Made by a program: the position numbers and the translations under genes. Shown piece by piece: positions 10,749 through 53,994 of a DNA stretch of 64,000 bases. A model generated the notes under the pieces. The model saw only the letters and a program-made list of their open reading frames with translations. It searched no databases and was not told where the DNA came from. Position 1 is the first letter of the stretch. The number at the start of each line of letters is the position of its first letter. The DNA is taken from positions 44,826,001 to 44,890,000 of the forward strand of contig CM114271.1 in NCBI GenBank assembly GCA_050084515.1, read 5' to 3'. Source of the stretch: Blasia pusilla (lineage: Eukaryota).

Positions 10749-12502
<1,754 letters not shown>

Positions 12503-26155: not shown

Positions 26156-29100
26156 TGTCGTGCTCATACACATCATTATACAACATACATCGCTATCACC
26201 AAACATACACACAAATACGGACGATCCCATGCTAACTCATGCAATACACACAACTAGACGAGAGGTACAAAAATATTTCCAATTAAATCAAGGAAATCTC
26301 TCTCAACATCTCAAACCAAACTCTCCATGGTGTGCACTCTCTCTCATGTCAAACCAAACCCACTCTCCTAATGAGAGGCTTGGATAACACACACAAGGCA
26401 TGGAGGACCATTGCTCCGCCGCCTTATGCCAAGAGGTTCAACAAAGAGAGAATGAGCTCTCAAGCTGTCTTGGAAGTATACCCCCTTCCTTCTCCGAAGC
26501 TCTCTCCTCGGTAACTTATGCTTGCATGTCATCTCCTTGGCTCTTGACCTATTGTAGCGGGTCAAGGGTCACTTCCCAAAGTGGAAAGTAAACTATACTA
26601 TAAATGGTAATGTACCCAAAATAGTAAGTTATCTATATGGCTCCAAATGAGCCGAAACAAAGGGGAAACCTGCTCTCTCATGTTATATGTGGCCTCAGCA
26701 GGTCATCCTCGACTTCATGAGGCTGTCCTCCAATATCTCCAAAGGTGCTCTACTAGATATCGCCGATCTATCTGTGGATCCAACTCCGCAGCGGCTCCAC
26801 GCGTAACAACAACGGCGACCTCCATCAGGGCAACCCCGCACATCCAACCAAGATCGTCCATATCTCTGGTTGGTCCGTCGATGCCACGGATTCGGCATCG
26901 GATAACCTCAATGCCATAGCGGCAACTACTATTGTAGGTGCTCTATCTGAGCAGCCATCCCAGCCTCACGCGTGACGTCTCTCTTGACACGTCTAGGTGG
27001 CGGGACTCTCCCTCCTCCACGGGAAACTCCACCACCCCCTCAAGCGAATCCAACTCTTCATCCCCCAACATGACCACCTGGTGCACGACCTCTAGGCTCA
27101 TACGGACCAGCAATTGGCTCTGATGCCCTCTCTGCCTCTCAGTCCGGACGTAACTCATGGTGTAGGTGAAACATTTGGCACGTGTGTGACACTACCTCTG
27201 AGAATAGTCACACTGATAACCTCCTAGTGCAGCACCATCTCCTCCTCCATTCTGAGGCACGCGTCCATGACCTTGACGAGTGCAATCGTGCTCATGATGG
27301 GCTCCACCACACGACCAACAAATAATCATAGGCGGCTGCTGGTGAGCGGCATATGCAGGCGTAGGTCTTTATGGCACAAGCTCGCGCTAACCTCCATGCG
27401 CTCCCGATGCCTCTATGAGAATCCTCCACGTTGCTGCATTGGTGGTGCAAATACTCGTGGCTGCTCTCGCCCAAAACTCATGGTGGCTATGATCTCCTCT
27501 ACCATGTTGCGCTCAATATTCTCAGCGGTCCTAAATACATCTTTCAACGTAAGTGAGGTGTTCATAAGAAGCACCCCTTCCCGCACCGGTGTCCGTAGGG
27601 TTCGGTCCTTCATCGCATACCATGACTGGATAGCATGTGACTCTCTCATCCCCTGAGTGACGTTAATCAACCGGCGCAAGCGAGTGTAGGCCTCCAAAAA
27701 ACTCTCACCCGAGCACCTTTGGAAGTCGTGGATGCTCCGCAACTTCTCCATCTGTACCCCCTGGTAGCTCATCTGTAACTCAACCACGGGGTTGAACTTA
27801 GGACGAACCCAATTGGACTATGCAAGTGCTCCATTGCAAGTTATCCCTCCTAAAACATCACTTGTGGAAAAAGCCTCTCATGACTCCTCCTCCTCATTGA
27901 GAAATGGCTCAGTCCATGACACATAATGTGGGTCATAGTAGAGTCTCCATGCCTCATTCTCCTTGGTATATTGGTGGGAGAACTCATGGTAATTGTCAAT
28001 GGGTGCCCCCTTTAGGTGCTCGAACATACCATTCCATGTTTTGAATGGGTTGAACTCTCTAGAGTTTCTAGCCAACTAGGTCTGAGTCACACCAACTCCT
28101 AAACTCTACAATGAAGTCGTGTAACTCTATAGTGCCTATACCACCCAAAAACCTATGCGGTCCTCTATCCCGGTCATCCATCTCGTACGGCCAACTTATA
28201 GGACCACTTAATATGTGTGGTGATGCACTAACAACATCCTCTACTCTCTCCCCCTTGTCTGAAGATGACACAGAAGGAGATCAAAGTGATCTCTCATATG
28301 GAGACCCTCGAAACCTCGCACCACTCCGGATAAATCCTCTAGACCTACTCTCAACTCCACCACCTCGCCTCTCAAAGTCCTGAAAGGACTCCGTGATGAC
28401 CCTTGTGCCCCTCTTGCACGATCACTCTCAATCTCATGAGTAATCACTCAATCACTCAACTAAATAAGCAACACTCAGTCCACACTCCCACTCCCACTCA
28501 GACGTGTATTGTGTGGCAACAAGCGGCGTGGTGCGGAAAATCAACTCACCTATCATCTCATCAACAAAGCATATCCTCAACTCTAGACACGGGTCTATGT
28601 CCGCTAAACCCATACATGAATGATGCTCTCAGCATTTGCATGACCCCCAATATCCCCAAATAACTACCCAATACCCGGAAGTCCTTAACACGTGTAGGGA
28701 AAAAGATCATAATGGGTAACTGAACAAATGTCAATCGCTCCTCAACAACTACAAATCTTGACCCTAACTCGATCATGAAGACAAACTCCTCCAAATAGCA
28801 AGTTGTACTCCTTTGGTACTGAGTATGCTCCAAAATATCCTCGATGTGCGATGCGGGTCCAACGGTACGGTGCGGCACTAAGAGATATACCCTCCTCAAT
28901 AGCACCACACACTCTGTTCTAATGATGTTGCAGCTCCGCGATCAAGATAGTGCGGTGCGGCGATGAGTGGCACGGCGCAAAAATTGGTGGCGAGTTGCGA
29001 CCACAAGCGTCACGGCATGATACTCGATCGTTGTCGAGCGGCTACCACCTTAAGACATAGCAAGTCGTGAAGAAAAATGGGATCCCATCAATCCAAAAGG

Positions 29101-31217
29101 TCATTTGTCATCATTGGTTGATGACAAAACTATATGACAGAATCCAAGTGACGGACAGAGCCCCCGTAGTAACCAACCGTGCAACCATGTAAGGTAGCCT
29201 ACCCACGATAAAGAACGCACGTACGTTGTGCCTTGTCGGACCCAACCACTTGTAACCACGATTGCTTCCAGGCAGAGTAGGAAGTGTAGATGCAGTAGAC
29301 GCGGTGACTATAGGAACGACCATCACGGCGGCTGCAGACAGAATGCGACAAAGGGTTGCAAGCCACAAAGCAACGGATGGCGGGACTATGGCAAGACATA
29401 GTCCCCCGATTGCATTGCAAACTGCGGCACAAACGTGGTAGGTCACGCCAGAGCCACATCGGAGCAGTTGCCGCTTATGCGGGCTGACTGAGCGACTGAG
29501 AGTAAGGTTGAATGCGGTCGGTCAACAGTCGACAAATCTGGAAAATAGTCGTAGCTCCAGATAGCAACAATCCGTGCTAGTGGTGGGTGGCGTAAGATCC
29601 GTGGCGGCTGCAGTGAGGAAGTAGCCGTGTCAGCGGGTTGTTAGCAATAGACGGGGCGGATGTGGCGTTGAGGGCAGGCCGTGGCAAATCGGGGACAAGC
29701 AGGGCGGTAGTCGAGCAAGCACGGACTCCGGAAGGTCAAAGGCCGACAAAAAATCGCAAAGTCGGAGCGCGTGAGGGTAAAGACCCAACATCAATATTAG
29801 CTACTCCCGGAGTCGAGAAGGTCATCAGCTGGACGGCGATTGAAGCAACAGGCGGAAAATCCCGTAGCGGCGGTCGTGGCATGGTAGTGTGAAGAAAGGG
29901 TAGGCCTAACGGGACGCAATAGGGAGGGCACCCTCCCCCCTTTTCTTGTCATCTTACTCAAATAAATCCTGGGAAAATTGGGTCTACTCCCTAAATCTTT
30001 CCCAATTTTGGCTTCAACTCACACTCTTCACAAAAAAATAGGGTCAAATCCCCTGATAAACAATTTTCACCCCAACTTCTACCTCAAAGGACATGTGCCC
30101 TTGTCTTATCCACATAAGTAAAAGGAATTTTTTTCCCACTTCTCAAAAATATTTCTACCCAGGGATTTTAGAAATTTCACTCACACCTTCCAATAGTGGC
30201 GATGGTAGCCACACGAGAACTATTGTAACTTATTTCTCATAAAATGAAATTGTGCACCATTTCTTCCACAAAATACACAGCTTCTTGATCTAAAAATTTG
30301 TCAAAGCGATTTCTCCATATGATCTTCCACCAAAAATTGAATGGAATTTTTATGCACCCCACTGTCTCTTTCTCCTACGCAAATTTTGGCAACGCTTCCG
30401 CGCTGATTTCTCCCAAGGAAAACTTCACACGTGTAAAATCAGCACTCAGAGGGGCACATGGTGTTGCCGAGAGCACCGACATGGGGACATTCGCCCTCAT
30501 CCTCAATATCTAATGAAAATTGGGTAGCGCTTCTGCGTGCAATTATTCCCTACAGAAATTAGCACTGAAAAATAGCAAACTCGAGCGGCTCTTGCTCCGG
30601 CGAGCACTCCCATGAGCTGCTGAATGGGGAACATGGTCCCCAACCTGGACATCAACGAGTGACTAGGAAGCTCCTCCATTGAAGCTCTCTCACTCTCTCA
30701 TTCTCTCTTTGATCAAGGAAATCTCTCTCAACATCTCACACCAAACTCTCAATGGTATGCACTCTCTCTTGTGTTGAACCAAACCCACTCTCCTAATGAG
30801 AGGCTTGGGTTACACACACAAGGCAAGGGGGACCATAGCTCCTCCGCCTCATGCCAAGAGGATCAACAAAGAGAGAATGAGCTGTGAAGCTCTCGCTCTT
30901 GGAGGTATACTCCCTTCCCTCTCCGAAGCTCTCTCCTCGGTAACTTATGCTTGCAAGTCACCTCCTTTGCTCTTGACCTGCTGTAGCAGGTAAAGGGTCA
31001 CTAACCAAAGTAGAAAGTCAACTATACTCCAAATGGTAACTTATCCAAAATAGTAAGTTTATCTATATGGCTCCAAATTAGTTGAAACGAACAGGAGACC
31101 TGCTCTCTTAGGTTACCCGTGGCCTCAACAGGTCATCCTCGATCTCCTGAGGCTGTCCTCCAATATCTCCAAAGATGCTCTATTAGATCTCTCTGATCTA
31201 TCCTAAAAGTCGTGAGA
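26156..31217 (-). mobile_element. Family-1 split-repeat element with internal deletion (A1, 5' region, gag, A2, B2)
   Basis: A1 ~30712-31217. Gag 26773-28440 matches 35770-37484. Deletion junction at 26772/26773. A2 ~26284-26772 lacks its first ~14 bp. B2 26156-26283 ends GCACGACA. Confidence 0.85.
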
Positions 31218-33100: not shown

Positions 33101-33679
33101 TATTAAATTTTACATTTTCCAAGTAGAACAACAAGGTTGATGATATATTACACATTATTTAAAAACAAGTTTAAGATTGTATAAACTTAAAGTTTCTTAA
33201 TTATTTGGTTTGCACTTGGATCCTTTTTTGGCTCAATGTTATCACATCCTTTTCAAAACCAATTTGATAGAGAAGTATTTGCAAGTTCATGTTATATGTA
33301 GTTTTATTCGAGCTCCACTTTTGTTAGTGGTTGAATGATCATGCCATCCAAGTGGAGTAGAGACTCAGAGACAAATGATTAAACCCCCGTGTAGATGAAC
33401 TTAAGAATTGATTCAATATATACCATCAACTATACAAGGAGCATGTTGCTAGTATGATGAAGACGCCAAGAAATTTTCATGATAGAGTTTCAGTGAGCTT
33501 CTAAAGGCTTGGATGCCTACTCATCTCTTGGACTCTTCATTTATTTTTTGGTCTGATTTTTACAGGTATTAAAATTTTCTTTGTTGTAATGGTGTTGTAT
33601 ACATCCAACATTCCAAGCTCTATGTGGAATTTTATATTAGTTGTGAGAAAACAAAATGTGACGTAAATACTCAAATATG

Positions 33680-34239
33680 TGTCACGTCCTTTAGGATAGA
33701 TCGGTGAGATCTAGTAGAGCGTCTTCAAGAGTAGTGGAGGACAGGTCGAGGATGACTTGCTGAGGCCCCTAGAGGCAGGTCATCCCCTTCGTTTTGGCTC
33801 CGGGAGGTAGGTCATCCCCTTCGTTTTGCTGCTGAGGCCCCGGGAGGCAGGTCATCCCCTTCGTTTTGGCTCATTTGGAGCCATATTGAGGAACTTACTA
33901 TTTTAGGTAAGTACCATTTTGAGTATATGATCGACTTTATATTTTTGGTAAGTGGCCCTTGACCTCCTACATCACGTCAAGAGCCAAAGAGGTGACTTGG
34001 GAGAATAGGTTACCATGGAGAGAGCTTGGGAGAAGGGAGGGGTATATATCCCAAGGAGAGAGAGCTTGAGAGCTCATTCTCTCTTTGTTGAACCTCTTGG
34101 CATGAGGCGGTAGAGCTATGGTCCCTTGCCTTGTGAGTATAACCCAAGCCTCTCATTAGGAGAGTGGGTTTGGTTTGACATGAGAGAGAGTGCACACCTT
34201 TGGGAGCTATGGTGTGAGATTGTGTAGAGAGCGATTGGA
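33680..34239 (+). repeat. Split direct repeat A1
   Basis: Near-identical to 43064-43584, apart from a rearranged block at 33745-33860. Not followed by B. Confidence 0.92.
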
Positions 34240-35907
34240 TCTTACTTTACAAAGAGAGAATGCGAGAATGAGAGAGTGAGAGAGCTTCATGGGGGAACTC
34301 GCTGGTCAATCGTTGTTTTTGCAGGTTGGGGACCATGTTCCCCATTCAACTGCTCATGGGAGTGCTCATCGGAGCAAGGGTTGCTTGGATTGTTCTTTGC
34401 ATTTGCCGAGTTTTCGTGTGGAAGAGTGGCGCGCGGAAGCGCTGCCCAATTTTTGATAGTGATTGAGTATGGGGGCGGGTTGCCCCATGCCGGTGCTTTT
34501 GGGAGCACCATGTTGCTTTCTGATTTGCATTTTTATAGGTTTTACATTTTTTTTGGGAGGAATTAGCACGGAAGCGTTGCCGAATATTGGGTAGAAGAAA
34601 GAGACATTGGGCTTTACGACAGTTCCCGTCAATTTTACTCAAATGTCCAATTCCAAATGTTTTTTGATGCAGGTGTAGATCGTGAAGCTGTGCACGCTGT
34701 GCAATAACCAGTGCGCAATTTGGAGTTGCGAGCAAAAAGTTATGGTTAATCTTGAAAAACTGTCATTGCTAGGAGATTTGTATGGTTAAATTGTGCAAAC
34801 CCTAAACCAACCGCCACACCGGCGGCGGCCGTCGCCGTTATAGTCACCGTCAACCATCAACGGTCAACTTTCACCGTCCATGGTCAACCGTCACCAGCGA
34901 CGGTCAACTGTCATTGTCAATGGTCCACCGTCCATTGTCCACCCTTGGTTGCCATTGCCGCCGTTAAGGAGTGGAGGGTCTTCCACAACGTTCGTTGATT
35001 CTCGGACTTGCGTCGCCATCACGTACTTTGTTTTGGCCGCCACCGTCATCAACTTGTGATGGCATATGACCTCCTGTTATAGTGTTTGAGTTTTGATATC
35101 CTGGTGCTTGTTGTGATTGGTAGCCGCTCAACGACGATCAGGTACCGTGCCGTGACGCCCGTAGCTGCAACGCGCCGCCGATTGCCATGTCGTGCCGCTC
35201 GTGGCCGCACCGCACCATCTTGATTGCGGAGCCGCTCTGGCATTGTGGAGCAGAGTGTGGGTTTATTTTTGATTGAGGAGGGTATGCCGCCGAGTGCCGC
35301 ATCCCATCATCGAGGGTCGTGCCGTTCGTAGCCGTTCCGTGCCGCCGCAACGCCGCACCGTTCCGTTGGAACTGCACCGTCTATCGAGGAGTTTTGAGCA
35401 ACATCGGTATGGGAGGAGTATCACTTGCTGATTGGAGGAGTTGTCTCCACGACCGAGTTGGGGTCGAGATTCGCAGTTGTTGAGGAGCGACATCGACATG
35501 TGTTCAAGTTACCCATTATGGTCCTTTACCTTGCACGTGTAAGGGATTATGGGATTTGGGTAGTTTATTTGGGGATATTGGGTGTGTGAATGGTGAGAGC
35601 ATCATTTATGTATGTGATTTAGGGGACATAGACCTGTGTGGGATATCCGGAGTTGAGGGTAGGTTGTCGATGAGATGATAGCCTGGTCGATTTGCCGCAC
35701 CACGCCGCTTATTGCCGCACGTTACATCTCGGGGAGGGAGAGTGAAGATCGAGTGCCGCATGTTTGGGATGAGTGATTGAGGGATTACTCGCGAGGCAAG
35801 AGTGATCGGGTGAGAAGGGAACGAGGGTCATCACGGCATCCATTCGGGACTTTGAGAGGCGAGGTGGTGAACCCGACAGTAGCTCTAGAGGTTTTACGGG
35901 GAGTGGC

Positions 35908-37100
35908 GTGAGGTTCCGAGGGTCTTCACTTCAGGGACCACCTCGACCTCCTTCTGTGTCATCGTCAGACAAGGGGGAGGGTGTAGAGGAATTTGTGAGC
36001 ACATCGCCACACAATGTGAGTGGTCCTACTTGTTGGGCGTACGATATGGACGACCGAGGTAGAGGACCGCGTATTTTTTCAGGTGTAGTAGGTACGATTG
36101 AGTTCACAATTTCATAGCAGAGTTTAGGAGTTGGTGCGACTCCCAGCAGGCCATGAACTCTAGAGAGTTCAACACGTTTACAACATGGAACGGTATGTTC
36201 CAGCATTTAGAGGGGGCACCCATGGACGATTACCATGAGTTCTCCCACAGATATGCCCAGGAGATTGAGGCATGGCGACTCTGCTACGACCCCCACTATG
36301 TGTCATGGACGGAGCCGTTCCCAGATGAGGAGGAGGAGTCATGAGAGGCTACTTCCTCTTCCACTAGTGATGTTTTAGGAGGGGTCATTCGCACTGGAGC
36401 AGTTGCACCGTCTAGTCGGGTTCGTCCCAGGTTCAACCCTGTGGTTGAGTTCTTTGCTGAGTTGAGGGCGAGCTACCAAGGGGTATGGACAGAAAAGTTG
36501 CGGAGCATCCACAACTTCCAGAGGCGCACGGGTGAGAGTTTACGTGAGGCTTACACTCGCTTGCGCCGGTTGATCAACGTTACTCAGGGGGTGACGGAGG
36601 CTAAGGTTATCCAGTCATGGTACGCGATGCGGGACGAGACTCTACGACCACGGGTGCGGGAGGGGGTGCTTCTTATGAACATCTCCCCTACGTTGAGAGA
36701 TGTTTTTAGGACCGCCGAGAACATTAAGCGCAACATGGAGGAGGAGAGCGTAGCCACCATGGGTTCTAAGCAAGAGCAATCGCGATTGGCTCGCACCACG
36801 TGTGCAGCAACGTGGACTCCGAGATAGGTCAAGTGTGGCACCACGAGCTCAGGGAGGATACCGGGAGCCCGTGGCACAGAGACATGCGCCTTCATATGCG
36901 GCTCAACAGAAGCCGCCTACTATTACTTGTTGGCCATGTGGAAGAGCCCATCATCAGCGCCATTGCACTCGTCAGGGTCATGGACGTATGCCTCAGCATG
37001 GAGGAGGAGATGGTGCTCCACCAGGAGGTTATCAGTGTGACTATTGTTAGAGGTATGGTCATACACGCACCAAGTGTTTACGTTTACATCCTGAGTTACG
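35908..37100 (+). pseudogene. gag: gag (capsid-like region and two zinc knuckles)
   Basis: FQRRTGESLREAYTRLRRLI retrotransposon-gag motif. Knuckles CWPCGRAHHQRHC and CDYC*RYGHTRTKC. Stops and frameshifts present, true start uncertain. Confidence 0.8.
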
Positions 37101-37959
37101 TTCAGACCGAGGGCCAGAGAGGGCACCAGAGTGAGTAGCCGGTCCGGGTGGGCCTAGAGATCATGCACCAGGTGGTCCCGTTGGGGGACGAGGAGCTCGA
37201 GTTGCCCGATAGGGTGGTGGAGCTGCTTGTGGAGGAGGTAGAGTACCACCACCTAGATGCGCCGAGGGAGACGTTGGACGTGAGGTTGGGATGGCTGCTC
37301 AGATATAGCAGCTACAGGAGCAGATTGCCGCTATGGCATTGAGGTTACCTGATGCCAGATCCGTGGCATCGACATCATATGGAGCAGCTAGAGATCTGGA
37401 GGATCCTGGTTGGATGTCCGGGGCTGCCTAGATGGAGGCCGCCGCTATTGTGACGCGTGGAGCAGCCGTAGAGTTGGATCCACAACGAGAAGCCAGAAAA
37501 CAGACTAGGCTTCCTCAATCTTTCACGTTGTCCAAAGCGATGAGGATCCCATCGATGGGTCCTCATCAAAGTTCCTAGAGAGTTGGTGATGTTGTTGGTG
37601 TGCAGGCACGGAGGGCGATGGGAGAAGCGAGTGCAACGACTCCTATTGTTGATGCTCATGAGGGGCATCTGTCGAGCACATTGTTGGGGGCGGCCACCGT
37701 TGTGTACCGCACTCCTTTATTTTCTGCTTCGGATGTTATGACGTTGGGGGGTACGCCCGCCGAGGCATTTTGGCTGGCCGCGTTGCTATGTGAGCGCAGA
37801 GTTGGAGTTCTTGCATCACGTTCAGAGGTGATTGTAGAGGAGGTGATGGACCTGCCCTTGGAGCGGATGCTCGGACCGTCCACGTCAGATTCATGGCAAG
37901 CTGCGGCTGCTAGAATGGCGGAGATGCCCGCTAGACCCGCGATAGAGTATGCCATGGCT

Positions 37960-38376
37960 TCTCCTAGTGTTGTGTTGCTGGATAACCAAGGAGAGGTCTT
38001 CCAATTGGTGAGTCTTGGAGGAAGAGCTTTTAGTCCGCAACGCGTCTTGTTGGATTCAGGAGCGCAACCCCTGATGTTGGGAAAAGCGTCATTCAGAGGA
38101 TTGGGCTTGACGAGAGCCGATGTGGAGCGTTGTCCATTCCGGATACAGACATCCTTGGGTGGAGCGAATACCACACAGTATATCACCCAACAAGAGGTCA
38201 TGGTGAGGATTTGCCCGGGACATCCTACTGATGAGTCTGTGGTGCGCGCCAAGGCGATAGTGACTGATACAGAGTCCTACGACGTCTTGGTTGGTGAAGG
38301 AGTGTTATACCCGATGGGGTTTTCCCTGGATAACTGGGAGGAGTGCGTCCTACAGACCAAGATAGCAGTCAGGTGA
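37960..38376 (+). pseudogene. Retropepsin aspartic protease domain
   Basis: RVLLDSGAQPLMLG catalytic motif and C-terminal YDVLVG. Confidence 0.85.
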
Positions 38377-38761
38377 TGGGCGCCTTAGCTCATTATCCGT
38401 TCGATTCACAGGTGCAGTGATTGAGCAACGGCCAGGAGAGATGGCGACCTTAGCAGCATTTAGCAGTGCCATCACTTGGCCTAGTGATTTGATTGAGGGA
38501 CATGTCCATGCAGAGGATACTCCCGTTCCTAACATTTCTATGGAGAGGAGTGTTATGGTAGGTGCATCATTCCGTTGAGGAGAGGTGCCAATGTGGGGCT
38601 CGACTGAGGAGCTTCGACGATTGGCAGATGAGCACATGCAGACCGCGTGGAGCGAGGCATTTGCACCGGAGCGTGACGGGTTTGAGAAACCTGAGGTAGC
38701 AGGGAGTGGTATGATGACACCCTTGGATACCACACCCATTGTGTGGTGTACCCCGGAGGAG

Positions 38762-39380
38762 GGTATTTGAGTGTTAGATCTCTTTGGAGGGATTGGCACT
38801 GGGTTAGCTGCTGTTTTGTAGGCAGGAGTGCGAGTACAACAGTATCTGTATGTATAGGAGAGTGATGATGTTGCAAGGCGCGTCTCACTACGACATGTGG
38901 CGCGATTACGCCTACGTTTTCCCGACTCATTATGCAAGGTCAGCGATCTGAATACCGAGTTCCTTCCGAGGGATATTTCGTTGTTGGGGGCGCAGGACTT
39001 AGAGCGGGTAGGGACCGTTGATTTGGTCATTGCCGGTTGGCCATGTCAAGGCCAATCGAGTGTTGAACGAGGCATGGGTTGGCGGACACTCGGTCCATGT
39101 TGTTTTGGGAGATGTTGAGGGTCTTACGTCAGTTGCAGGAGTACCAGTCTCATTCTCCAACCGACATTGTGGAGAATGTGCCGATCTTAGGAGACTCCCG
39201 GTCACGGGTGGTGACAAGTGTTCATCAAGTGCGTGCCTAGATCGGCCCAACAGTGTTCTTGGGTGCGGCGAGTGTAGGATTCTTGGATGCGGCAAGAAAT
39301 GACGTCGTGATGCCTCTTGGGTCAGGCGATGGACCTGAACTGCTTGACATGGATCCTCAGCTTGGGAGTGGCTGAGCAGC
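38762..39380 (+). pseudogene. DNMT3-like C5-cytosine DNA methyltransferase domain within pol (disabled in this copy)
   Basis: Motif I GI*VLDLFGGIGTGL (38762-), motif IV DLVIAGWPCQGQS (PC at 39041-39046), GLADTRSMLFWEMLRVL, motif VI IVENV (ENV 39172-39180), motif X-like LLGQAMD (39314-). Confidence 0.9.
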
Positions 39381-39688
39381 GTCGTATGAGATCGCAACAG
39401 CTCATAGCGGTTGCGTTGGTGAGCCCCATGCCTACCGAGACGGTGGAGGTAGTGGCTGGGGGCGACACCCGAGGAGATCGGGAGAGACACCCTTGGACTT
39501 CTTGGGAATTTTTGCAAGTACGCAAGGAGATGATAGCCACAACATTGAGCGTGGTTTCGGGCATTGCACGTGGAGGAGATAAGAGTTTGCAGTTGGCTGC
39601 AAGAGAGCGGCTGAGTGTTGTTGTTCGAGACGGGGTTGCACCATAGCAACCAGCGATACCGCGACCGGAGAGTCCTACCGTAGTCACG

Positions 39689-41110
39689 ATGGAGACTTGG
39701 GAGCCATATATGGGCCCTAAGTTGACAGGAGAAGAGCGGCGCCGAATACATCAATTCCTCAAGAGTTATAGGAGCTGCTTTGCGTTTAGCATGGAGGATT
39801 TGGATACGCTGAAGGGACCGGGGATCCGCATTGAGTTGTCGAGTGATACGCCAATCTTCCGACGACCCTACAGGTACAGTGATATGGAGAGGGCTCTGAT
39901 TCAGAGTAGGAGCCAAGACTTGGTCAGAGCAGGACTAGTGGAGATGTCGCATGGACAGTATGCATCTGCCATTGTAATGCCCGCCAAGAAGGATGTGCAT
40001 GACAATTGGACGGATAGGCGGATGTGTGGGGATTACCGACCTATCAATCGGCAGACGAAGTCCGATAGGTATGCCATGCCCACCCCTGAGGAGATCTTTG
40101 ATGCGATTGGTCATGCAAAGGTCTTTAGTTCATTGATTTTTGAAGTCGGATACCATCAACTACCTATCGATTGGAGGACAAAGTAAGACGGCATTTTGGG
40201 GCATCGATCCTCACGGGAAGGATTGTTTGTACCAGTGGCGGTTCTTACCATTTGGGTTAAAGAACGCCCCGGCTGAGTTTCAGAGGGTCATGGATAGGAT
40301 CTTGGCTGGTCTGGATTTTGCTAAGTGTTATATTGATGACATCGTAGTCTTTACCGCCACGGTTGAGGATCATGAGCGACATAAAGAGGAGGTGTTTCGA
40401 CGATTGCAATTACATGGGCTGAAGCTACATCTAGGCAAGTGCAAGTTCTTCTACGACCAGATTGAGTACTTGGGTCATACGATATACCCAGGGGGCCTTG
40501 GTGTTCAGCAAATGAAGGTAGAGGCTATCTCACGCATTCCACGCCCTATAGATGTGAGCCGGGTTCGCGCATTCATGGGATTGGCGAACTTCTATCGGCA
40601 ATACGTAAAGGGATTCGGTTTGATTGCGAAGCCAATGACCTTGCTGACCAAGGTGGATCACGAGTGGCACTGGGGGGATGAGCAGGAGCAAGCATTTCAG
40701 TTGCTCAAGGACATGTTGACGTCTGTGCCCATCTTGAGGAGACCAATCAGGGGGCGTCCTTTCCAATTGCACACAGATTGGAGCATGTTGGGGCTTGCAG
40801 CGGTGCTCACCCAACATGATAATGATAGTAGAGAGTTCGTGGTGGCTTACGCTAGCCGCTCGAACAACGCTGCAGAGGCAAAGTATAGCTCGTATGAGGG
40901 TGAGTGCTTGCTGCGGTGTGGATTGTTGCATATTTCAGGTGTTACTTATTCGGCAACCCCTTGACCATCACCACTGAAGTGGTTGATGGAGTCCGACAAG
41001 CTTACAGGGAAGCTTGTGAGATGGGCTCTGTTGTTGCAGGAGTATGATTTTCAGGTGGTACATAGACCTGGGACGCTCAACCAAGATGCAGATGGGTTGA
41101 GTCGTAAACC
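39689..41110 (+). pseudogene. pol: Reverse transcriptase and RNase H (Ty3/Gypsy type)
   Basis: RMCGDYRPIN, LPFGLKNAPAEFQR, YIDD (40329-40340), LHTDWS, AYASR, YSSYEGE, NQDADGLSR. A few frameshifts. Confidence 0.95.
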
Positions 41111-41399
41111 ATGTTCGAGTCAGCGAGATGCGACTGGAGCTCGATGGCATGGAGAGAGTGATAAGGAGTCGGTGCTAGGATGGCACGCGTCAGCCTATTT
41201 AGGCATGTTGGCTTTGGAGAGCCAGAGTGTGGAGACTTCGATGGCGAGTCCTAATGGAGAGTCCTTAGATCCCGAGGCCAGTGAGGAGACGACAGGTGGC
41301 TGAGATATTCATGATGATGGAGTAGTCTTGGAGTACCTTCATGATCGGCAGCGTTTAGCAATCTTTGAGGTGCTAGAGAGCGAGATCGGATCCTACAGC

Positions 41400-42600
41400 G
41401 GGTCAGACGCTTCCGTTGGGAGGGGACACATGTTTTGAGGGTTTGGGAGGATGGCAGAGTACGCGTAGTGCCACATCTTTCGCAGAAAGCACGACTAGTG
41501 CAGCATGCCCACGAGGAGTTGGGTCACTTTGGGGTGAAGCGGACGTACAGCTTGCTCTAGATTTAGTATTGGTGGCGAGGCATGCAAACTGACGTTCAGC
41601 AGTTTGTTGCCATGTGCATGGTGTGTGATCGGGTCCGAGCATCGTTCCATGCTCTAACTCCACAGTTGCATCCATTACCGATCATGGGCTTAGGGTGTAG
41701 ATGGATTTTGGATTTTGCAGGACCTTTGCCTTTGACAGAATGTCATGGTTGTTATGTGTTGGTGATGGTCGAGCACTTCTCAAAGTGGATCGAGTTGGTT
41801 GCATTGCCTGACAAAGCGAGTGAGGGAGTAGCTTATGCCTTCCTTGACAGAGTGTTGAGTCAATATGGTGCACCGGTTGAGGTGTTGCAGACCATGGTAC
41901 CGAGTTTCGGGGTGAGTTCCAAGCCTTGTGTGATCAAGCGCTGATCGACCACCGCACGACTTGGCGAGATCATCCCGAGGCGGATGGATTAGCGGAGAGA
42001 GTTGTGCAGACGGTGAAGAGAGGTTTACGCAAGTATGGCTTGCACAGAGGTCACCTAGGAGATTGGGACCTCCAGTTGCCATGGTTGGCGATGGGAAACA
42101 GATTCAGCAGGCAGACATCCTTAGCATCTTTTTCACCGTATTTGCTACTTTATGGCCGAGAGCCAGATTTACCTACGGCCATTCGTCGAGATGCTGATGA
42201 GGTGCTGGACCTTGATGACCCAGATGTATGGGTGCGAGCATGTTCTCAGAGGGCTGAGTTGTTTTGGAGAGTGATGCCCATGGCGTTTGAGAACTTGGCG
42301 ATTGCGCAACATCGAGATACGTTGAGGTATGTGACTATTCGGGGAGGTGGTTATCGACCAACTATCGGGAGGTTTCATCGGGGAGATTTTGTCTACTTGC
42401 AGCAGACGGCACCGACGACGTTGGATGTGACTACATGGCGTACTATCCTGAGAGTGCTTGACGTTTTGCCATCCGGTGTTCTTTTGCTGGAGGGACGCGA
42501 TGGTATGGTATGGAAGGACCATGTGCGTAATTGTGCACCATGTCACCTTCCTAACATTGATAGTACAATGGATCCGAGCTTAGTAGTAGTTCCAACAGGC
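41400..42600 (+). pseudogene. DDE integrase with HHCC zinc domain
   Basis: HAHEELGHFG...CMVC, LDFAGP, EHFSKW, DHGTEF (frameshifted), HPEADGLAERVV, SPYLLLYGR. Confidence 0.93.
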
Positions 42601-42606
42601 TTGCGT

Positions 42607-42747
42607 TGTATGTTGTGTGGTTCTGCCCGTGGTGCGGCCACGATGGTGGTCTGTGATGGTTGTTCGAGAGGTTGGCATATGGCATGTCTGACGCCACCTC
42701 TCACTAGGGTTCCTTGGGGACGATGGATGTATGCCACATGTACTTAG
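42607..42747 (+). pseudogene. C-terminal PHD finger fused in frame to integrase
   Basis: CMLC...MVVCDGCSRGWHMACLTPPLTRVPWGRWMYATC fits C4HC3, with the penultimate Cys mutated to Tyr (TGT>TAT). Confidence 0.9.
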
Positions 42748-42930
42748 AGGAGATACTAGGTAGGTTTCGATCCCGACTTTTTCTCTGACATGGATGACAT
42801 GAAGGCGACTAACAATGGGGCCACATGAGCACCCGGCCTTCTTGCTCTTAGCGTCCGGGAGATGTATGTCATGGTAGGTAGGGATAGATGGCTATCTGGA
42901 GTTATAGGGACCTAACCACCAACTAGGGGG

Positions 42931-43061
42931 GCGATTGGAGATACTTTGGTACTTCTTGTCTCGTTGTTTGGATGCCATAAGTTAGCATGGGATCGTGCGT
43001 GTTTGTGTGTGTGTTTGGTGATAGCGATGTATATTGTGTAGCGATGTGTATGCGCACGACA
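42931..43061 (+). repeat. Split direct repeat B1
   Basis: Near-identical to 43578-43706. Ends GCGCACGACA. Confidence 0.92.
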
Positions 43062-43063
43062 AG

Positions 43064-43706
43064 TGTCACGTCCTTTAGGATAGATCGGTGAGATCTAGTA
43101 GAGCGTCTTCAAGAGTAGTGGAGGACAGGCCTAGGAGGTCGAGGATGACTTGCTGAGGCCCTGGAAAACCTGAGAGACCAGGTTTCCCCTTCGTTTTGGC
43201 TCATTTGGAGCCATATTGAGGAACTTACTATTTTAGGTAAGTACCATTTTGAGTATATGATCAGCTTTCTATTTTTTGTAAGTGGCCCTTGACCTCCTAC
43301 ATTAGGTGAAGAGCCAAAGAGGTGACTTGGGAGAATAGGTTACCATGGAGAGAGATTGGGAGAGGGAAGGGGTATATATCCCAATGAGAGAGAGCTTGAG
43401 AGCTCATTCTCTCTTTGTTGAACCTCTTGGCATGAGGCGGCAGAGCTATGGTCCCTTGCCTTGTGAGTATAACCCAAGCCTCTCATTAGGAGAGTGGGTT
43501 TGGTTTGACATGAGAGAGAGTGCACACCTTTGAGAGCTATGGTGTGAGATTGTATAGAGAGAGATTATGTAGAGAGAGATTGGAGATATTTTGGTACTTC
43601 TTGTCTCATTGTTTGGATGCCATGAGTTAGCATGGGATCGTGCGTGTTTGTGTGTGTGTTCGGTGATAGCGATGTATGTTGTGTAGCGATGTGTATGCGC
43701 ACAACA
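43064..43706 (+). repeat. Split direct repeats A2 (43064-43584) and B2 (43578-43706)
   Basis: A2 matches A1 and B2 matches B1. They overlap at GATTGGA. Confidence 0.92.
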
Positions 43707-44832
43707 TATGTTACAAATCTTGGAGATACAAAGTGACCTACTCTGTTCGTGCGCTCACACAAGAGCTTCGATGGAATTGGCCTTGAACATGGATATAACT
43801 CGTCATACGAGAATACGTTATCACTATGGCTCCCGGCTATTTGACTTCTCGAGAAATCAGGGTTTTTACCTAATTTTCTTTGTTTCTATTTATAGAAAAA
43901 ACCGTGAGGGATTGCGTCCTATACCCCCGCGTCATTTGGCATCGCATCTAATCCTACTCCAAAAACCACCTTCATGATATTATTATAACTCCTCCAACGT
44001 CTAAGTCTGAACCATCAGTCCAAGCTTCTCCTTGTATAAGGGGGCCGATCAGTTTAATGTTGAGAATCCAATATTTTTTTGATAGTGACTAATAAATTTG
44101 CTTGAAGTAATTAATTTCAAAGTGGGTTGATTCATTGAATTGTGATGGTGAATATTTGATAATTAGAGAATAAATTTTTCTATCACAAAGTATACAAGTT
44201 TGGGAGCATCTAATTTTTGGCTAGCCAAATCTCACACATCGATGACAAAGATAAATTCCATGGAAGAAAATTTCCAATTGGCCTCTTGAAATTCAAAGTT
44301 TTGATTGTTAATGATCATAGTGCATAACTCCTATTTCCAAACTTGGACAATGATCCACCACAACTATTGGTCAATCAAGCTTTGGGTAGTTATCAGTTGT
44401 GGCCAAACAGTAATGCCAAGAAAACTCAAATTCTTGCACCTTAGTTTTTAAATTAGATTAGAGATTATTTTAGGTTTTTTGGTGAATTCCAATTCCTCTT
44501 TTACAAGAATTTTGAACTTCAATTTATGTTGTTAGTCCTAGTGCTATATGCACATTTTGGCTAGTAGTGTTGTGAGTTATATTTCTATTGTTAAGTTTGA
44601 ATATCTTCCATCATCATAGAAATGAACGTCAATGAATCTTTGTTTATTGAATTTCATGCATCATCATAAGATGCAACATGCATATGATATATTTTTTTCA
44701 TCGTTATTTTTCTAATATTCATGTAATTTCAAGCTACATTGTGGGCTTCTAATGATTTTGAAATTCTTTACATTAAGGAAACTGGTATAGTTATTAAATA
44801 GGTATCATGTGCATACACAATATACATTATGG

Positions 44833-45901
44833 TATCATGCGCATACACAACATACATTGTTGTAATTGAATCTACAAAAAAAACACATAAGATGTCATAC
44901 TAATTCATGACATATAAACATCGAGACAATTGAGTATCAAAATATCTCTAATAAATCAAAATCTTTTATAACGTGCAGACAAATCCATCTCTCCATATTA
45001 TGCCAAACTAAATTTACTCTCCTAATAAGAGGTTTGGATTACTCATAAGGCAAGGAGGACCATAACTCTGTCGCCTCATGCTAAGAGATTCAACAAAGAG
45101 AGAATAAGCGGGGTCTACTTCCTTCCCTCTCCTAAGCTCTCTACGTGGTAACCTATGGTCGCATATCATCTCCTTGGCTCTTGACATGCTGAAGAGAATG
45201 AAGGGTAACTTCCCAAAGTGGAAAGTGAGCTATATTCATAACATTGTATTATCCGAAATAGTAAGTGTATAAATATAGCTCCAAATGAGCAAAAACGAAG
45301 GGAATGTTGGATTCTCAAAATCCACTTCTCTCCCCAACATTAATATGATTGGCCCCCTTATATGAGGAGAAGCCTAGATTGATGCTTCCGACTTAGATGT
45401 TGAAGGAGTCATAGTAATATGACGTAGGTGGTTTATGGAGTAGCGTTATTAGGATTTTATGACCCTATATTGCATAAGGGTCCGGGGCACCCTGACGCGT
45501 CCTAGGAGCGCAGTCCCTGGTATGCCAAGATGATGCAGGGGTCGGGCAAACTTTATCTATAAATAGAAACAAAGAAAAATAGACAAAAAATCTTAGTTTC
45601 CCGAGTGGTGACATAGTCGGGAGCCGCAACGGTAGCACATTCTCGTATGTCGAGTAATCTCAATGTTCAGGTTCCATCTAAGCTCTTCTCTGAGCGCACA
45701 GACGGACTAGGCCACTTTGTATCTCCATGATTTGCAACATATTTTAGTGATTCCCTCGCATTCTTTTTTCTCGTAGGGAAAACCTCCTCTCCAAGGTTAC
45801 TTGAGGCCTCAACAAGTCATTTTGACCTTCTCAGGCTGTCCTCTGGTATCCTCAGAGCCGCCCTGCTAGAAACTCGTCAATCTATCCTACAAGACGTGCC
45901 A
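44833..45901 (-). mobile_element. Solo AB unit of family 1, interrupted by a solo LTR
   Basis: B at 44833-44950, A at 44990-45304 and 45781-45901. ATGG on both flanks (44829-44832, 45902-45905). Confidence 0.75.
45305..45775 (-). mobile_element. Conventional solo LTR with 5-bp TSD
   Basis: TGTTGG...TCGTA on the plus strand, flanked by GGGAA at 45300-45304 and 45776-45780. Homologous to 43711-44073. Confidence 0.8.
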
Positions 45902-50072: not shown

Positions 50073-53000
50073 TGTCACATCTTATTCCGACGTAGGTAGA
50101 GTTCTATCGTGTCGACGACATAGTGAGTCAACGGGCTGTTTGGGTGTAACTTTGTCTCAAGATGTCGGATAAGGTTGGCAACAGGTCTGTTGTGTCGGGA
50201 ATGTTGTTTATGGCAATTTCCATATTTTGGTTTTAGGCTGTCAAGTAGCCCGTTCACCGAGTCAACGGTCACTCGATAACCTGTGCACATAGGTTACCGT
50301 TTGGAGGGCTACTTTTTTGGGAAGAGCCTTTTGGCTCTCCCCAAGGATATAAGAATGAGAGAGATGGTTTTCCCAAGCTATCTTTCTCATGTTGAGCCTT
50401 AGGAGCGCCTCTCTTGCATAGACGTGTGTGGATACGTAGGAGTTAGGGTGCTAGCGTCCCGATTCCCTCGTAGTAGAGGGTGGATGTGGTGTCGCCTTAA
50501 GGAATAACTCAGTTTTCCTCGAGTCTAGAGTTGCTCTTTCGGAAGAAGAAAATTGAAATAACCGCTTCTCAAACTCCGCAATAATTCATTTGAAGTCATT
50601 CACTTCCCTAGACGTTGCTCTATCCATTCTAAAAAACCCCTCTTAGTCACCCAATCCACATCATCATGGAAGAATTCTCCTTTCAGCAACTGCTCATACT
50701 CCTCCCACGAGGTTGGATTTTTTGCTCTCAACTTCTTTACTTGACTATGAATCTTTGGTGTTACAGCTAAGTCAAAACTTGACACCATATCACCTTCGGG
50801 TACACGATTTACCTCCATCTCACATACTTACTCTCTAACATACTTGGTGATGTTCATCCCATCAAATCTCCCCAACTTCTTTACAATCGCTTGAAGAGCC
50901 CTTGTTGATCTTTGCTCTCCTATGTGAACTCCTCCTTGTTGGCTCAACAATGTTGTCAAAGTTCGGAGAAGATCCTCAACTCCCTCAGTTCCCATTGATG
51001 AAGTACTACCAAAAGTCGTCATCTTGATAAGACTCCAACTTGCAAACACAATCTACCACCTCAAAGATCTCTTAGTGGAAGCACCATTTGTCATGTCGAG
51101 AGCCTTTCTTTGAGTAAGGGCAGGCCTTCTAGTTGCGGCAGACGTGGTCGATGAAAGGTGAACTCTCTAAGAAGTTATATGTTTTCAATACAAAATTATT
51201 ATGTATACTCTCCATTCTCTTACAATAGGTATCACAAATGGAAGTGTCGAGGCGATCACTTCTTTGTAACATCGGACCCCGGAATTCCTAACTATAAAAT
51301 CCCTATAAACTACTTTGCGCTTGTACACGAGGAAGATAGCACAACTAATGTTAAACCCTAATTGAGCAGGCCTATTGACGTCCGTGGATCGCTATATAAG
51401 GACATACAAAGTACAATCCCATGTATTTCCATATGTAACGATAGGAAGGATCACCGAAGTTGGAGATTGAATGATCTGGTTCATGAACACCTCTCAAAAG
51501 TGATAAACTAAATAGCGAGTGAACCAATGCTTATCTACAAAAAGTATCTTGACATGGTATGGATTCAGGAAAGGAAAGTCGGGCATAACTCGTGCTCCAT
51601 CCCTATCCACGCTTGACAGACATTCTCTACTCTCCTCAAGAATGAGTTTTGGCGGAGTTATTCTCCCAAGAGGGGTAGTCCACTCTCATTGGGAAAGTAA
51701 CAAGCCAAAATATCCACTATTTTAGTATGACTAAACTCTTATAAGGTAACAAACCTCTCATCTCCACACACACACACCACACTCTAGAATCCTCTTCAAG
51801 AATAGACCATGGTCAAGTTACTCTCCCAATAAAGGTGATCCACTCTCATTGGAAGAGCAAGTAATCCCAAAGCCATACACTCAAGAGTGACACGAGAAAC
51901 TCAAGATGCGGAATAGAAGGTGATGAACCCTTGAAAGTCTCTCCTCTTTATATACTCACAAGTGATCCATAAGAGTACGAAATAGAACTAATCTTATCTT
52001 GTGCCACATGGCTTCCTCTCAAGGCTTAGCCAATCACATTTTGACGCAAGTAGATTTCCTCTTATCTCTGCCAAAATATCCTCTTTTACCCACTTGATAT
52101 TTTCGAAATTACCCCAACTAACCTAGCCACCAACCAAACCTAGCTTTTCTTTTCATTAAAGCTCCAACCTCACTACTTTACTTTTATAAAGTCGTCTTTT
52201 ATTTATTACCTCTTTTCCTAAAGTTGGGCCCGCATAAAAGAGGCACCATAAAGAGGTTTAAACATGGGAATTTACTTTTCCTAAGCTAATTTACTTAATA
52301 CTAATAAAACCCTATCTAACACTTAACGAGGAAAGAGTTTACACACTGGCTGATTTTACTACACGACAATGGTGACCACGTTGGCAACATTCATAGTTGG
52401 TGTTCATTGATCAGAAGGGTTTGGAGAGAGGAGCACACATGCGGAGGATATTCTCGTAGTGGATAGTCCCACAGAGAGACATGCCAAGGTGGGTGTTTCT
52501 TTCCATGGTTCAGAACTTCTTTATTATTGTTCGGGACGAGCGTTGAGATGCATGGAGTGCAGATAAGATCGTGAGGTAGGCGTGGAGCTGTGCCTATGCT
52601 TGGATCAAGGTACGAGAGTGTTAGATCTCTCCGGAGGGATCAACACAGGGGGTTGTTGTAGTGTGGCAGTGTTGTAGGGATGACGATATCGATGTGTGTA
52701 GGATAGGAGATCTTGTCGGATACATATGTATGTGCTATCTCGAGTTAGGGGGACCCAACTGCCAGCTAGGGGGCGGTTTTCGGGTCCCAGTATATATGTG
52801 TGAGTATGTTTCATTTATGTGTGGATCTACTCGTATGTCGGGGAAGATTGGTGTTGTGTGGTGTGTACATGTGACCAACAATGTGGGTTGTATAGCAATG
52901 TGTATGCACACGATAATTGTCACATATTATTTCAACGCAAGTAGAGTTCTATCACATCGACGGCATAATGAGTTAGCGGGATGTTTGGGTGTAACTTTGT

Positions 53001-53558: not shown

Positions 53559-53994
53559 ATATCCTTTAACCACCAATTTTCTTTATACCTTTTAATGCTC
53601 CCATTGCTTCCAATGTAGAGATGTTAGGATTCATAGCTAGATGGATCTTAGATATATATGTACATGACAGCCGATGTATGTTGGCAGTGATGTGTATTCG
53701 CACAACATAGATTTCAAATTTTGTACATGTCTTATGTGATTAGGTACAGGTTGACCCAATGCGCTTTAATCAAAATTTTCTTCTTTGCACATAGATTAGT
53801 TCAAAAATGCGTACATCTACTCCCGGGATGCCCTCTCGTGAAGAACCGGTTCTCGGGAAGTCCACAAGCATCAAAACTGACGACCGGGATGAATGTCGAG
53901 TACGAGTGAGTTGCCACAGTATAAACTTCCACTATGAATTGATGCCTTTTACTTGTGGTGCCATATATTGACCAATGACATCAAGTGTAAGCAA

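Follow-up and report, generated by a model that had tools for sequence, protein, structure and literature searches.

Known systems with related features

Split direct repeats in the arrangement A1...B1-A2-B2 are found in the Ngaro/PAT-like tyrosine-recombinase retroelements of the DIRS order. In the bacterial insertion sequences IS30 and IS3, junctions of abutted ends are acted on by a DDE enzyme. Cleavage by integrase of the junction in retroviral 2-LTR circles has been reported for PFV and HIV-1 (PMC1180852, PMC1905944), and self-priming has been reported for Tf1/Sushi and Tcn1 (Neumann et al. 2019, PMC6317226).

The closest described element is KnitGypsy-Dnmt3 of the alga Klebsormidium, in which DIRS-like repeats accompany gypsy domains; the layout of DIRS-class elements is given in the same report as 'A-coding region-B-A-B' (de Mendoza et al. 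2018, PMC5890265). The name 'Gypsy-DNMT3' is also used for streptophyte elements in bioRxiv 10.64898/2026.05.21.726589. An A...B-A-B layout with gypsy domains has therefore already been noted in print once, for a related algal element and without explanation, so that the statement in an earlier reading of this DNA, made from the letters alone, that no description was known does not stand. The main text of PMC5890265 gives no primer-binding site (PBS), polypurine tract (PPT), spacer, target-site duplication or mechanism, and 'PHD' has 0 occurrences there. New here are a B repeat bounded by the polypurine tract, a self-priming complement just past A1, a spacer of constant 2 nt, a ragged A2|B2 joint and the extent of the RNA.

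Repeat anatomy of the element

The window is the whole stretch of DNA that was analysed, 64,000 nucleotides in length. Comparison of the window with itself gave, for the element at 33680-43706 on the + strand, the layout A1-internal-B1-AG-A2-B2. Repeat A1 (33680-34239) starts TGTCACG. Inside it are tandem units of 43 nt (33758-33872) and, further downstream, a TATA box (34043-34048); the RNA is predicted to begin at CATTCTCTCTTTGT (34075-34088), which would also be the self-primer. The U5 end of A1 probably extends to 34248. Repeat B1 (42932-43061) ends ...CGACA and is followed by the 2-nt spacer AG (43062-43063) and repeat A2 (43064-43577), giving a joint that reads ...ACA-AG-TGTCAC, which we take to be an uncut junction of abutted ends. 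Repeat B2 (43578-43706) ends ACA. The element has the termini TGTC...GACA, and the four bases TATG are duplicated on either side (33676-33679 and 43707-43710). A1 and A2 are 96.2% identical over aligned bases, A1 carrying additional 43-nt units, and B1 and B2 are 95.3% identical. In this copy the final ~12 nt of U5 are replaced beside the A2|B2 joint, and the end of A2 is correspondingly unlike that of A1. Two complete identical LTRs are absent: on the left there is A alone, on the right A followed by B.

The sequence-only reading had proposed this order of repeats, the TG...CA ends and the 4-bp duplication, all of which hold, and only two boundaries had to be moved. With its start at 42931, its B1 includes the final G of the preceding G-run, and its A2 end at 43584 overlaps B2 because GATTGGA is common to both.

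The layout as a trait of the lineage

A B-NN-A-B terminus was found in 22 of 80 fetched metagenome loci, or 21 distinct loci after removal of duplicates (L040 counted), as well as in three window copies. Recurrence in 21 distinct unrelated loci places the A1...B1-A2-B2 layout beyond chance; it is a trait of the lineage. A1 is visible in 18 loci, and neither in these nor in the three window copies is it preceded by B. At locus L010, A2 is directly followed by non-B sequence.

Repeat mapping also bore out the earlier statements that A1 runs straight into internal sequence, here and in the copy at 30712, and that B1-A2-B2 recurs in the window. The former is an older copy of this family with an internal deletion, on the - strand (26156-31215), in which A1 (31215-30720) is followed by internal sequence from 30705 with no B between, the deletion having taken B1 and left A2-B2. 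One more window copy behaves in the same way: a short deletion derivative on the + strand (10751-12966) retains A1-internal-B1-A2-B2, with A at 10751-11185 not followed by B, internal sequence at 11550-12013 and B-A-B at 12375-12966. Directly next to it, at 9207-10749, lies the 3' region of another copy, internal-B-GT-A, with B-GT-A at 10465-10749. The second recurrence, at 52776-53560 (+ strand), is the B1-AT-A2-B2 end of a more distant family with a G-run ahead of it; its two B copies are 89% identical and lie 643 nt apart.

Exact 4-bp target duplications flank four of nine full elements (TATG, AAGG, ATAA and ACCT), and in three others of the nine three of the four bases agree; none was seen at L036, L060 or the two older window copies. 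The A1/A2 and B1/B2 identities go together in all nine (e.g. 96.2/95.3, 92.3/93.8 and 86.7/87.9), which argues that both pairs of repeats are made at insertion.

Coding region

The element is a decayed member of a bryophyte/streptophyte Ty3/gypsy lineage with the order PR-DNMT-RT-RH-IN-PHD. Its coding region, all on the + strand, is interrupted by many stops and frameshifts, and the copy is therefore dead. A decayed, weakly marked gag-like region (36250-37150; Retrotrans_gag E=0.016, below the Pfam cut-off) has a Cys/His knuckle-like motif, seen by eye, near 36928. The decayed protease region (37636-38343) has the motif LLDSGAQ near 38050 and a weak gag-asp_proteas match (E=0.058), and by tblastn is 45% identical to residues 17-248 of Marchantia P0013. 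Residues 249-553 of P0013, the span containing its PF00145 match, align by tblastn to 38342-39279, a remnant of a C5 DNA-methyltransferase with frameshifts and stops in which FGGIGTG, PCQ and ENV can be recognized by eye; the domain gets no Pfam call in this decayed copy.

Reverse transcriptase and RNase H follow at 39662-41340 (RVT_1 1e-22, RT_RNaseH_2 9e-23, RT_RNaseH 8e-15; also tblastn), and a frameshift-split integrase at 41372-42000, with its HHCC zinc domain at ~41480-41641 and DDE core from ~41702 (Integrase_H2C2 4e-16, rve 1.6e-5; D, D and E by eye). The order RVT_1, RT_RNaseH_2/RT_RNaseH, Integrase_H2C2, rve is that of Ty3/gypsy Pol. At the integrase C terminus Pfam finds no chromodomain and in its place a PHD finger (42607-42741; PF00628 3e-8, above cut-off), which is also present in the relatives P0021, P0033 and P0058. 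The PR-RT-RH-IN pol with HHCC and DDE motifs described from the letters is thus upheld by Pfam for RT, RH and IN, and for protease rests on the DSG motif and the weak match above; the DNA-methyltransferase remnant and the PHD finger had been overlooked. The claimed lack of a tyrosine recombinase is borne out: an HMM search of the six frames of 34240-42932 gave no Phage_integrase (PF00589) match at E<=0.05, and none was found by Pfam in the intact relatives P0021, P0033 and P0058, nor in P0013.

The best protein matches are from liverworts (Calypogeia 76%, Marchantia 71%), and the matches of the DNMT search came from bryophytes only. In RT/RH the identity to a protein of Klebsormidium nitens is 48%, and the nearest hits that carry a name are Pol proteins of gypsy type. 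All inspected repeat-bearing copies are decayed, with longest ORFs below 500 aa. The DNA-methyltransferase remnant and the PHD finger tie the window element to the KnitGypsy-Dnmt3 group, to which it appears to be related: in both, the polyprotein of a gypsy-type Pol includes a C5 DNA-methyltransferase and the repeats are structured as in DIRS, but the window element is a dead copy from a liverwort-like host with a DNMT remnant only.

Replication signals, junctions and RNA

A polypurine tract, AGGGGGG (42925-42931, + strand), lies immediately 5' of B1. A G-run occupies the same position in 24 of 25 related loci, and both in the window and in 24 of the 25 the B1/B2 homology begins 0-4 nt past it. 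The A1/A2 homology, for its part, stops at sequence complementary to A: the predicted primer-binding site ACAAAGAGAGAATG (34249-34262, + strand) is a perfect 14-nt complement of 34075-34088, equalled in 0 of 500 shuffles. Perfect complements of at least 11 nt (11-16 nt) occur in 7 of 18 A1-bearing elements, all decayed copies (0/500 shuffles for six, 5/500 for one); in the other 11 the complement is imperfect or absent. In all five elements with a TATA match the complement lies 30-34 nt downstream of it. The sequence after A1 thus fits a self-priming site of the Tf1 type. As in Tf1/sushi and Tcn1, the site, predicted in silico, would pair with the 5' end of the RNA of the element itself and not with a tRNA. 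Tf1/sushi and Tcn1 differ in having a chromodomain and two complete LTRs, where this lineage has a PHD finger and permuted repeats.

Between the end of B and the start of A, all 25 related loci have a spacer of exactly 2 nt, of varying sequence (AC, GC, AT, GT, GA, AG). Unlike this joint of constant length, A2|B2 is ragged: it is exact in 9 of 16 loci of one group and elsewhere deviates by -2, -1, -3, +1, +6 or +14/-5 nt, although part of this could be inherited variation between families. Polypurine tract and predicted primer-binding site together delimit B-NN-A, and not the terminal repeats as integrated.

In three RNA-seq runs, taken as raw reads, the overwhelming majority of reads share one orientation. 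B1 is covered to a depth of 63-186 and A2 to 76-261; depth falls to 35-49 at 43534-43580 and is 8-28 over B2, about one-tenth of that over B1; the RNA spans B1-NN-A2 and largely ends ahead of B2. In two runs, 34-40 reads pass from A into the primer-binding-site sequence, with a loose end at 43566, and some reads exit B2 into varied flanks.

A proposed permuted LTR and its alternatives

The reading that we favour, at a probability of roughly 60%, is that the LTR of this lineage is B-NN-A, that its signals are those of an ordinary LTR element, and that end-joined cDNA is cut by integrase inside the LTR. The assignment of the LTR follows from the logic of reverse transcription applied to the polypurine tract, the primer-binding site and the extent of the RNA. 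Transcription would start ~30 nt downstream of the TATA box inside A1 and run through the internal region, the G-run polypurine tract, B1, the 2-nt spacer and A2, mostly ending ahead of B2. The first bases of the RNA would pair with the sequence just past A1, as in Tf1-type self-priming, and reverse transcription would yield a linear DNA with B-NN-A as its LTR, U3 comprising B, NN and A as far as the start site, and R-U5 the remainder of A. The ends recognized by integrase, TGTC...GACA, would then abut inside each LTR, between the end of B and the start of A, and not lie at the tips of the cDNA.

The integrated A1-I-B1-NN-A2-B2 would be a circular permutation of such a cDNA, from which we infer that the cDNA is end-joined and cut at the junction inside the LTR. 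On this anatomy, the right tip (the U5 end of A) would be joined to the left tip (the start of B, just past the polypurine tract), forming the A2|B2 joint in an end-joined, circle-like intermediate, and integrase would cut the 5' LTR at its abutted junction and insert the resulting ends with a 4-bp duplication. The proposed reaction shares with retroviral 2-LTR circles and with IS30/IS3 a DDE enzyme acting on two abutting ends with a short spacer. It differs from what is reported for them in that the abutted ends are encoded in the LTR and present in every integrated copy, with a spacer of 2 and not 4 nt. In a symmetrical circle with two LTRs, cuts in either of them would be expected; the other permutation, A-B-NN-A-I-B, occurs in 0 loci vs 21 distinct loci of the observed order, so that a strong directional bias must exist, and the permuted-LTR model leaves this strict directionality unexplained.

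That orientation follows without a biased cut if the element replicates in the Ngaro/PAT manner but with an integrase in place of the recombinase, which we consider unlikely. A transcript from inside A1 into B2 would be copied, the missing tips restored from the internal B1-A2, and the A2|B2 joint inherited through RNA and not remade in each cycle. The layout is identical to the A-coding-B-A-B typical of DIRS-class elements, an internal B-A joint storing both tip sequences in each, and about one-tenth of the RNA depth continues into B2, including reads that leave it, so that read-through RNA carrying the A2|B2 joint may serve as template. However, such a scheme predicts neither that B is bounded by the polypurine tract nor that A is bounded by the self-priming site; the depth falls some tenfold ahead of B2; A2|B2 is ragged while the remainder of the repeats aligns without such indels; and there is no route to exact TGTC/GACA ends for integrase. 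The lineage also differs from Ngaro/PAT elements in having, in place of a tyrosine recombinase, a DDE integrase with TGTC/GACA ends and 4-bp target duplications, and in its Pfam families and RT-RH-IN order it agrees with Ty3/gypsy.

It is improbable that a unit-length A-I-B, cut from the cDNA at both LTR-internal junctions, is what integrates, with A2-B2 added later by the host, for instance through insertion of a second A-B fragment in tandem. Solo A-B copies do exist, and A-I-B forms with exact 4-bp duplications were found at L003 (TACA) and L012 (TTTT), but recombination between repeats, B1-B2 in the case of A-I-B, explains both forms equally well. An A-I-B copy cannot supply U3 to its own RNA and therefore could not have founded the many families seen, and neither the equal ages of the A1/A2 and B1/B2 pairs within each element nor a spacer of invariably 2 nt sits well with later addition. 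An ordinary two-LTR gypsy element made odd by local rearrangement, nested insertion, unequal recombination or mis-assembly is scarcely credible, for although the window is densely piled with decayed copies, deletions and abutting fragments (e.g. 9207-12966), such an account is already contradicted by 21 distinct loci of other assemblies and three window copies, which repeat the order, the 2-nt spacer and the matching target duplications, and by the lack of B upstream of A1 in every copy.

Implications

The suggestion that the lineage joins two designs holds for the combination of gypsy enzymes with an A1...B1-A2-B2 layout. As a replication design it does not look hybrid: in polypurine tract, primer-binding site and reach of the RNA it matches an ordinary LTR element with B-NN-A as LTR, and the permutation is confined to the integrated form. 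We propose more tentatively, at somewhat less than even odds, that the lineage obligatorily integrates via end-joined, circle-like cDNA opened by its DDE integrase at the abutted-ends junction encoded in the LTR. If so, this obligate route would be a retrotransposon counterpart of the minicircle junctions of IS-type elements, and the lineage would be a living intermediate between the Ty3/gypsy and DIRS/Ngaro designs, showing how a split-repeat layout could arise from ordinary PPT/PBS logic.

Structure and coding content of the element

The element at 33680-43706 of the Blasia pusilla window has the layout A1-I-B1-AG-A2-B2, in which A and B are split direct repeats and I is the internal region. 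The sequence-only reading had proposed this A1...B1-A2-B2 arrangement, and a direct-repeat search with inspection of the ends bears it out and extends it to a whole lineage. All parts are on the plus strand: A1 at 33680-34239, B1 at 42932-43061, a 2-nt spacer (AG), A2 at 43064-43577, and B2 at 43578-43706. Identity is 96.2% between A1 and A2 and 95.3% between B1 and B2. The element begins with TGTCACG, ends with ACA, and is flanked by the target duplication TATG (33676-33679 and 43707-43710).

The domains detected with Pfam are RVT_1 (E=1e-22), RT_RNaseH_2 (E=9e-23), Integrase_H2C2 (E=4e-16), rve (E=1.6e-5), and a C-terminal PHD finger at 42607-42741 (E=3e-8), with weak support for protease (E=0.058) and gag (E=0.016). 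No tyrosine-recombinase family was detected at E≤0.05 in a six-frame translation of 34240-42932 with stops read as X, in agreement with what had been claimed from the sequence. Numerous stops and frameshifts interrupt the reading frames, and the element is therefore a dead copy. Its GC content is 47-55%, against 31-42% in the surroundings, and the window is mostly a graveyard of its family and of related families.

A decayed C5 DNA-methyltransferase (DNMT), unreported in the sequence-only reading, is located at 38342-39279, between the protease and the reverse transcriptase. Its FGGIGTG, PCQ, and ENV motifs are recognizable by eye; the domain in the window copy itself has no Pfam match, and its homology rests on tblastn, which matches this stretch to the PF00145-bearing part of a Marchantia protein (P0013). 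The remnant ties the element to a published group of DNMT-bearing gypsy elements. KnitGypsy-Dnmt3 of Klebsormidium nitens is a gypsy element whose Pol contains Dnmt3 (de Mendoza et al. 2018, PMC5890265), and the legend to Fig. 4c of that paper assigns its repeats the structure of DIRS retrotransposons and its domains to those typical of Gypsy. A 2026 preprint (bioRxiv 10.64898/2026.05.21.726589) mentions "streptophytes (Gypsy-DNMT3)" in one line. The interpretation of a lineage joining the two designs is therefore partly right, but its presumed novelty is wrong: the combination of DIRS-like repeats with gypsy domains is already in print, if only in passing, as far as that legend and that line go. 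Beyond these two places we found no published mechanism for such repeats, and the supplements of the 2018 paper may add to them. We class the element with the known Gypsy-DNMT3 kind, as a new member from a liverwort; what we offer as new, and as testable, is an anatomical account of its permuted repeats.

Liverworts supply the proteins nearest to the intact reverse transcriptase/RNase H frame (Calypogeia fissa, 76%; Marchantia polymorpha, 71%; also Riccia), with a K. nitens protein at 48%. The DNMT module has many relatives in Marchantia, Calypogeia, and Sphagnum. Two full-length related proteins, P0033 and P0021, have the domain order PR-DNMT-RT-RH-IN-PHD; P0058, a metagenome protein of 1966 amino acids that represents one group, places the methyltransferase after RNase H and before integrase (RT-RH-DNMT-IN-PHD). 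Either the module changed place or it was gained twice. The PHD finger, at the C terminus of the integrase, occupies the site of the chromodomain in chromoviruses, and its conservation in P0021, P0033, and P0058 suggests chromatin-directed targeting.

Distribution of the layout

Within the window, A passes into the same internal sequence without an intervening B in two more copies, one at 31215-26156 on the minus strand and a short derivative at 10751-12966 on the plus strand, and B was found before A1 in none of the 18 metagenome loci that show A1. The direct passage from A1 into internal sequence, noted previously, is therefore confirmed, as is the recurrence of B-NN-A-B ends (NN being the 2-nt spacer), which we place at 12375-12966 and 52776-53560. 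Target duplications of 4 bp fail in both older window copies.

Several other arrangements in the window deserve description. In the stretch 9207-12966, one copy is represented by its 3' part (internal-B-GT-A), which adjoins the start of the short derivative; the A of the abutting copy stops at about base 151, and its remaining A2-B2 was not found past 12966, and simple nested insertion does not account for this arrangement. At 11185-11260, where A1 of the short derivative meets internal sequence, a long (GA)n microsatellite replaces the region in which the primer-binding site (PBS) would be expected. Solo A-B units of related families, at 44844-45901 and 58195-58555 (both minus strand), could have arisen by recombination or by an A|B fragment integrating directly. 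At 1640-1850, the internal end, G-run, and B of another relative run through ...GACA and GC into non-A sequence, either an A-I-B-type end or a truncation.

Metagenome contigs were scanned with an alignment of ten relatives, which gave 80 loci; A and B sequences of seven elements then served as queries to annotate all of these and the window, with matches in 42 loci. The 3' end is B-NN-A-B in 22 loci, among which L015/L016 and L036/L037 are duplicates; when L040, with a truncated B2, is counted as well, the distinct loci number 21. B-NN-A runs up to the locus limit in L017 and L041, and B has no A after it in L003, L012, L018 (=L021), L025, L032, L033, L048, and L049. The odd layout is no accident of a single locus: it is the norm in a widespread gypsy lineage of bryophytes/streptophytes. 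In L010 (14275-14760), B1-GT-A2 is followed directly by unrelated sequence and B2 is absent; this sole case resembling a canonical LTR right end does not fit the account proposed below.

All repeat-bearing copies examined are decayed, and no intact copy with split repeats was found among the loci; those with long open reading frames (L055, L053, L026, and others) are more distant elements. L026 (1-7347) is an intact retroelement contig whose ends overlap by 99 identical bases and which holds an exact repeat of 66 nt, its copies 479 nt apart, beside an apparent GT...AG intron. It was set aside as a split-repeat member, its structure being different and unrelated to the lineage.

Anatomy of the junctions

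In LTR retroelements, a polypurine tract (PPT) sets the start of plus-strand DNA and a PBS that of minus-strand DNA. A G-run (GGGGGG or GGGGGGGG) lies 0-4 nt before the start of B1 in 24 of 25 loci, the one exception having a 5'-truncated B1; in the window element, the tract is AGGGGGG at 42925-42931, upstream of B1. The joint between the end of B and the start of A (...GACA-NN-TGTC...) keeps a spacer of exactly 2 nt without exception in the 25 loci, and the bases of the spacer vary.

Tf1 is a self-priming element, its PBS being complementary to a stretch of its own RNA near the start. In 7 of the 18 A1-bearing elements, the sequence right after A1 is a perfect complement of a stretch within A, 14 nt long in the window element (34249-34262 against 34075-34088), 16 in L009 and L011, 13 in L014, 12 in L028, and 11 in L016 and L031. 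Shuffled sequences matched these lengths in 0 of 500 trials for six elements and in 5 of 500 for the other; the other 11 copies, which are decayed, have no perfect complement. Where an element has a match to TATA[AT]A, as five do, the complementary stretch is 30-34 nt downstream of the match, at the expected position of the transcription start. This arrangement, like that of Tf1, makes the sequence after A1 a predicted PBS. Self-priming has been reported for Tf1/Sushi and Tcn1 (Neumann et al. 2019, PMC6317226). A tRNA-type PBS was rejected on the TGG start alone, which is found neither after A1 nor after the B end and its spacer.

Among nine full elements, 4-bp target duplications are exact in four (TATG, AAGG, ATAA, and ACCT), match at three of four bases in three more, and fail in two. 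The A1/A2 and B1/B2 identities run in parallel in all nine, and both repeat pairs therefore date from insertion. The A2|B2 joint is ragged: within one group it is exact in 9 of 16 loci, the remainder having 1-3 nt missing or 1, 6, or 14 nt extra, and in the window element the final ~12 nt of U5 are replaced beside it. Splicing was discarded as the source of this joint, there being no GT/AG at the boundaries. The motif GATTGGA (7-9 nt, at the end of A1 and the start of B1) was likewise discarded as a general strand-transfer homology, since it is missing from other families.

Transcripts across the 3' end

Raw reads of three RNA-seq runs that carry the same species label were mapped to 42500-43900 at 90% likeness. 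Most reads are only 90-95% alike to the window sequence and hence come from other family members. The first mate is on the minus strand in more than nine-tenths of reads, which, as in usual stranded libraries, we take to indicate sense RNA; the depths that follow count these reads. Coverage is continuous from the end of the internal region into B1 (depth 63-186) and is 76-261 in A2, 35-49 at 43534-43580, 8-28 in B2, and 0 in the flank at 43722-43862. In two runs, 34-40 reads depart from A at 43566 into GGATCTTACTTTACAAAGAGAGAATGAGAG, the continuation from A1 to the PBS. No pile-ups of RNA starts or ends over 42500-43900 were listed for the three runs. A contig of depth 17 and a few reads link 43508/43511 straight to 43579, which places the A|B joint of other family members ~67-70 nt further upstream.

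A proposed origin of the permuted repeats

With a PPT before B1 and a PBS after A1, the repeat unit produced by reverse transcription should be B-NN-A. Its U3 would comprise B, the spacer, and A as far as the start site, and R-U5 would be the remainder of A; B1-NN-A2 would then form the 3' U3 region of the transcript, from which B2 would mostly be absent. The extent of the RNA, covering B1-NN-A2 and mostly not B2, fits B-NN-A as the LTR. The integrated A1-I-B1-NN-A2-B2 would accordingly be a circular permutation of [B-NN-A]-I-[B-NN-A]. To judge from this anatomy, the A2|B2 joint would mark where the U5 and U3 tips of the cDNA were joined, and such tip-to-tip joining would account for its raggedness. 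The DDE integrase would cut the abutted junction within the 5' LTR and insert its two halves, which become the outer ends, while duplicating 4 bp of target. This implies a retroviral-type integrase working on an internal junction of abutted ends and not on the cDNA tips. IS30 and IS3 have analogous abutted-end junctions. Cleavage of abutted LTR ends by retroviral integrase has been reported for PFV and HIV-1 (PMC1180852, PMC1905944). A symmetrical circle should open at either LTR, yet the opposite permutation, A-B-NN-A-I-B, was found in 0 loci against the 21 distinct loci with B-NN-A-B, a bias that this account does not explain.

The A-I-B copies, two of which have exact duplications (TACA in L003 and TTTT in L012), and the solo A-B copies could be alternative products of integration, but recombination between repeats explains them equally well. 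About one-tenth of the RNA depth enters B2, which makes an Ngaro-like route from read-through RNA possible, though we consider it unlikely. We also considered several schemes of strand transfer in which no biased cut is needed to produce the orientation seen; the data support none of them.

Under the preferred reading, integration of a circular permutation of B-NN-A-flanked cDNA, a split-repeat element becomes explicable by standard reverse-transcription signals. This bears on the regeneration of DIRS/Ngaro-type repeats, a long-standing problem, and on circular cDNA as a possible productive intermediate of integration. It also bears on the annotation of transposable elements in liverwort and moss genomes, where finders that rely on paired LTRs will mis-delimit or miss the lineage. 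Its DNMT and PHD modules make the family relevant to the epigenetic conflict between transposable elements and their hosts.
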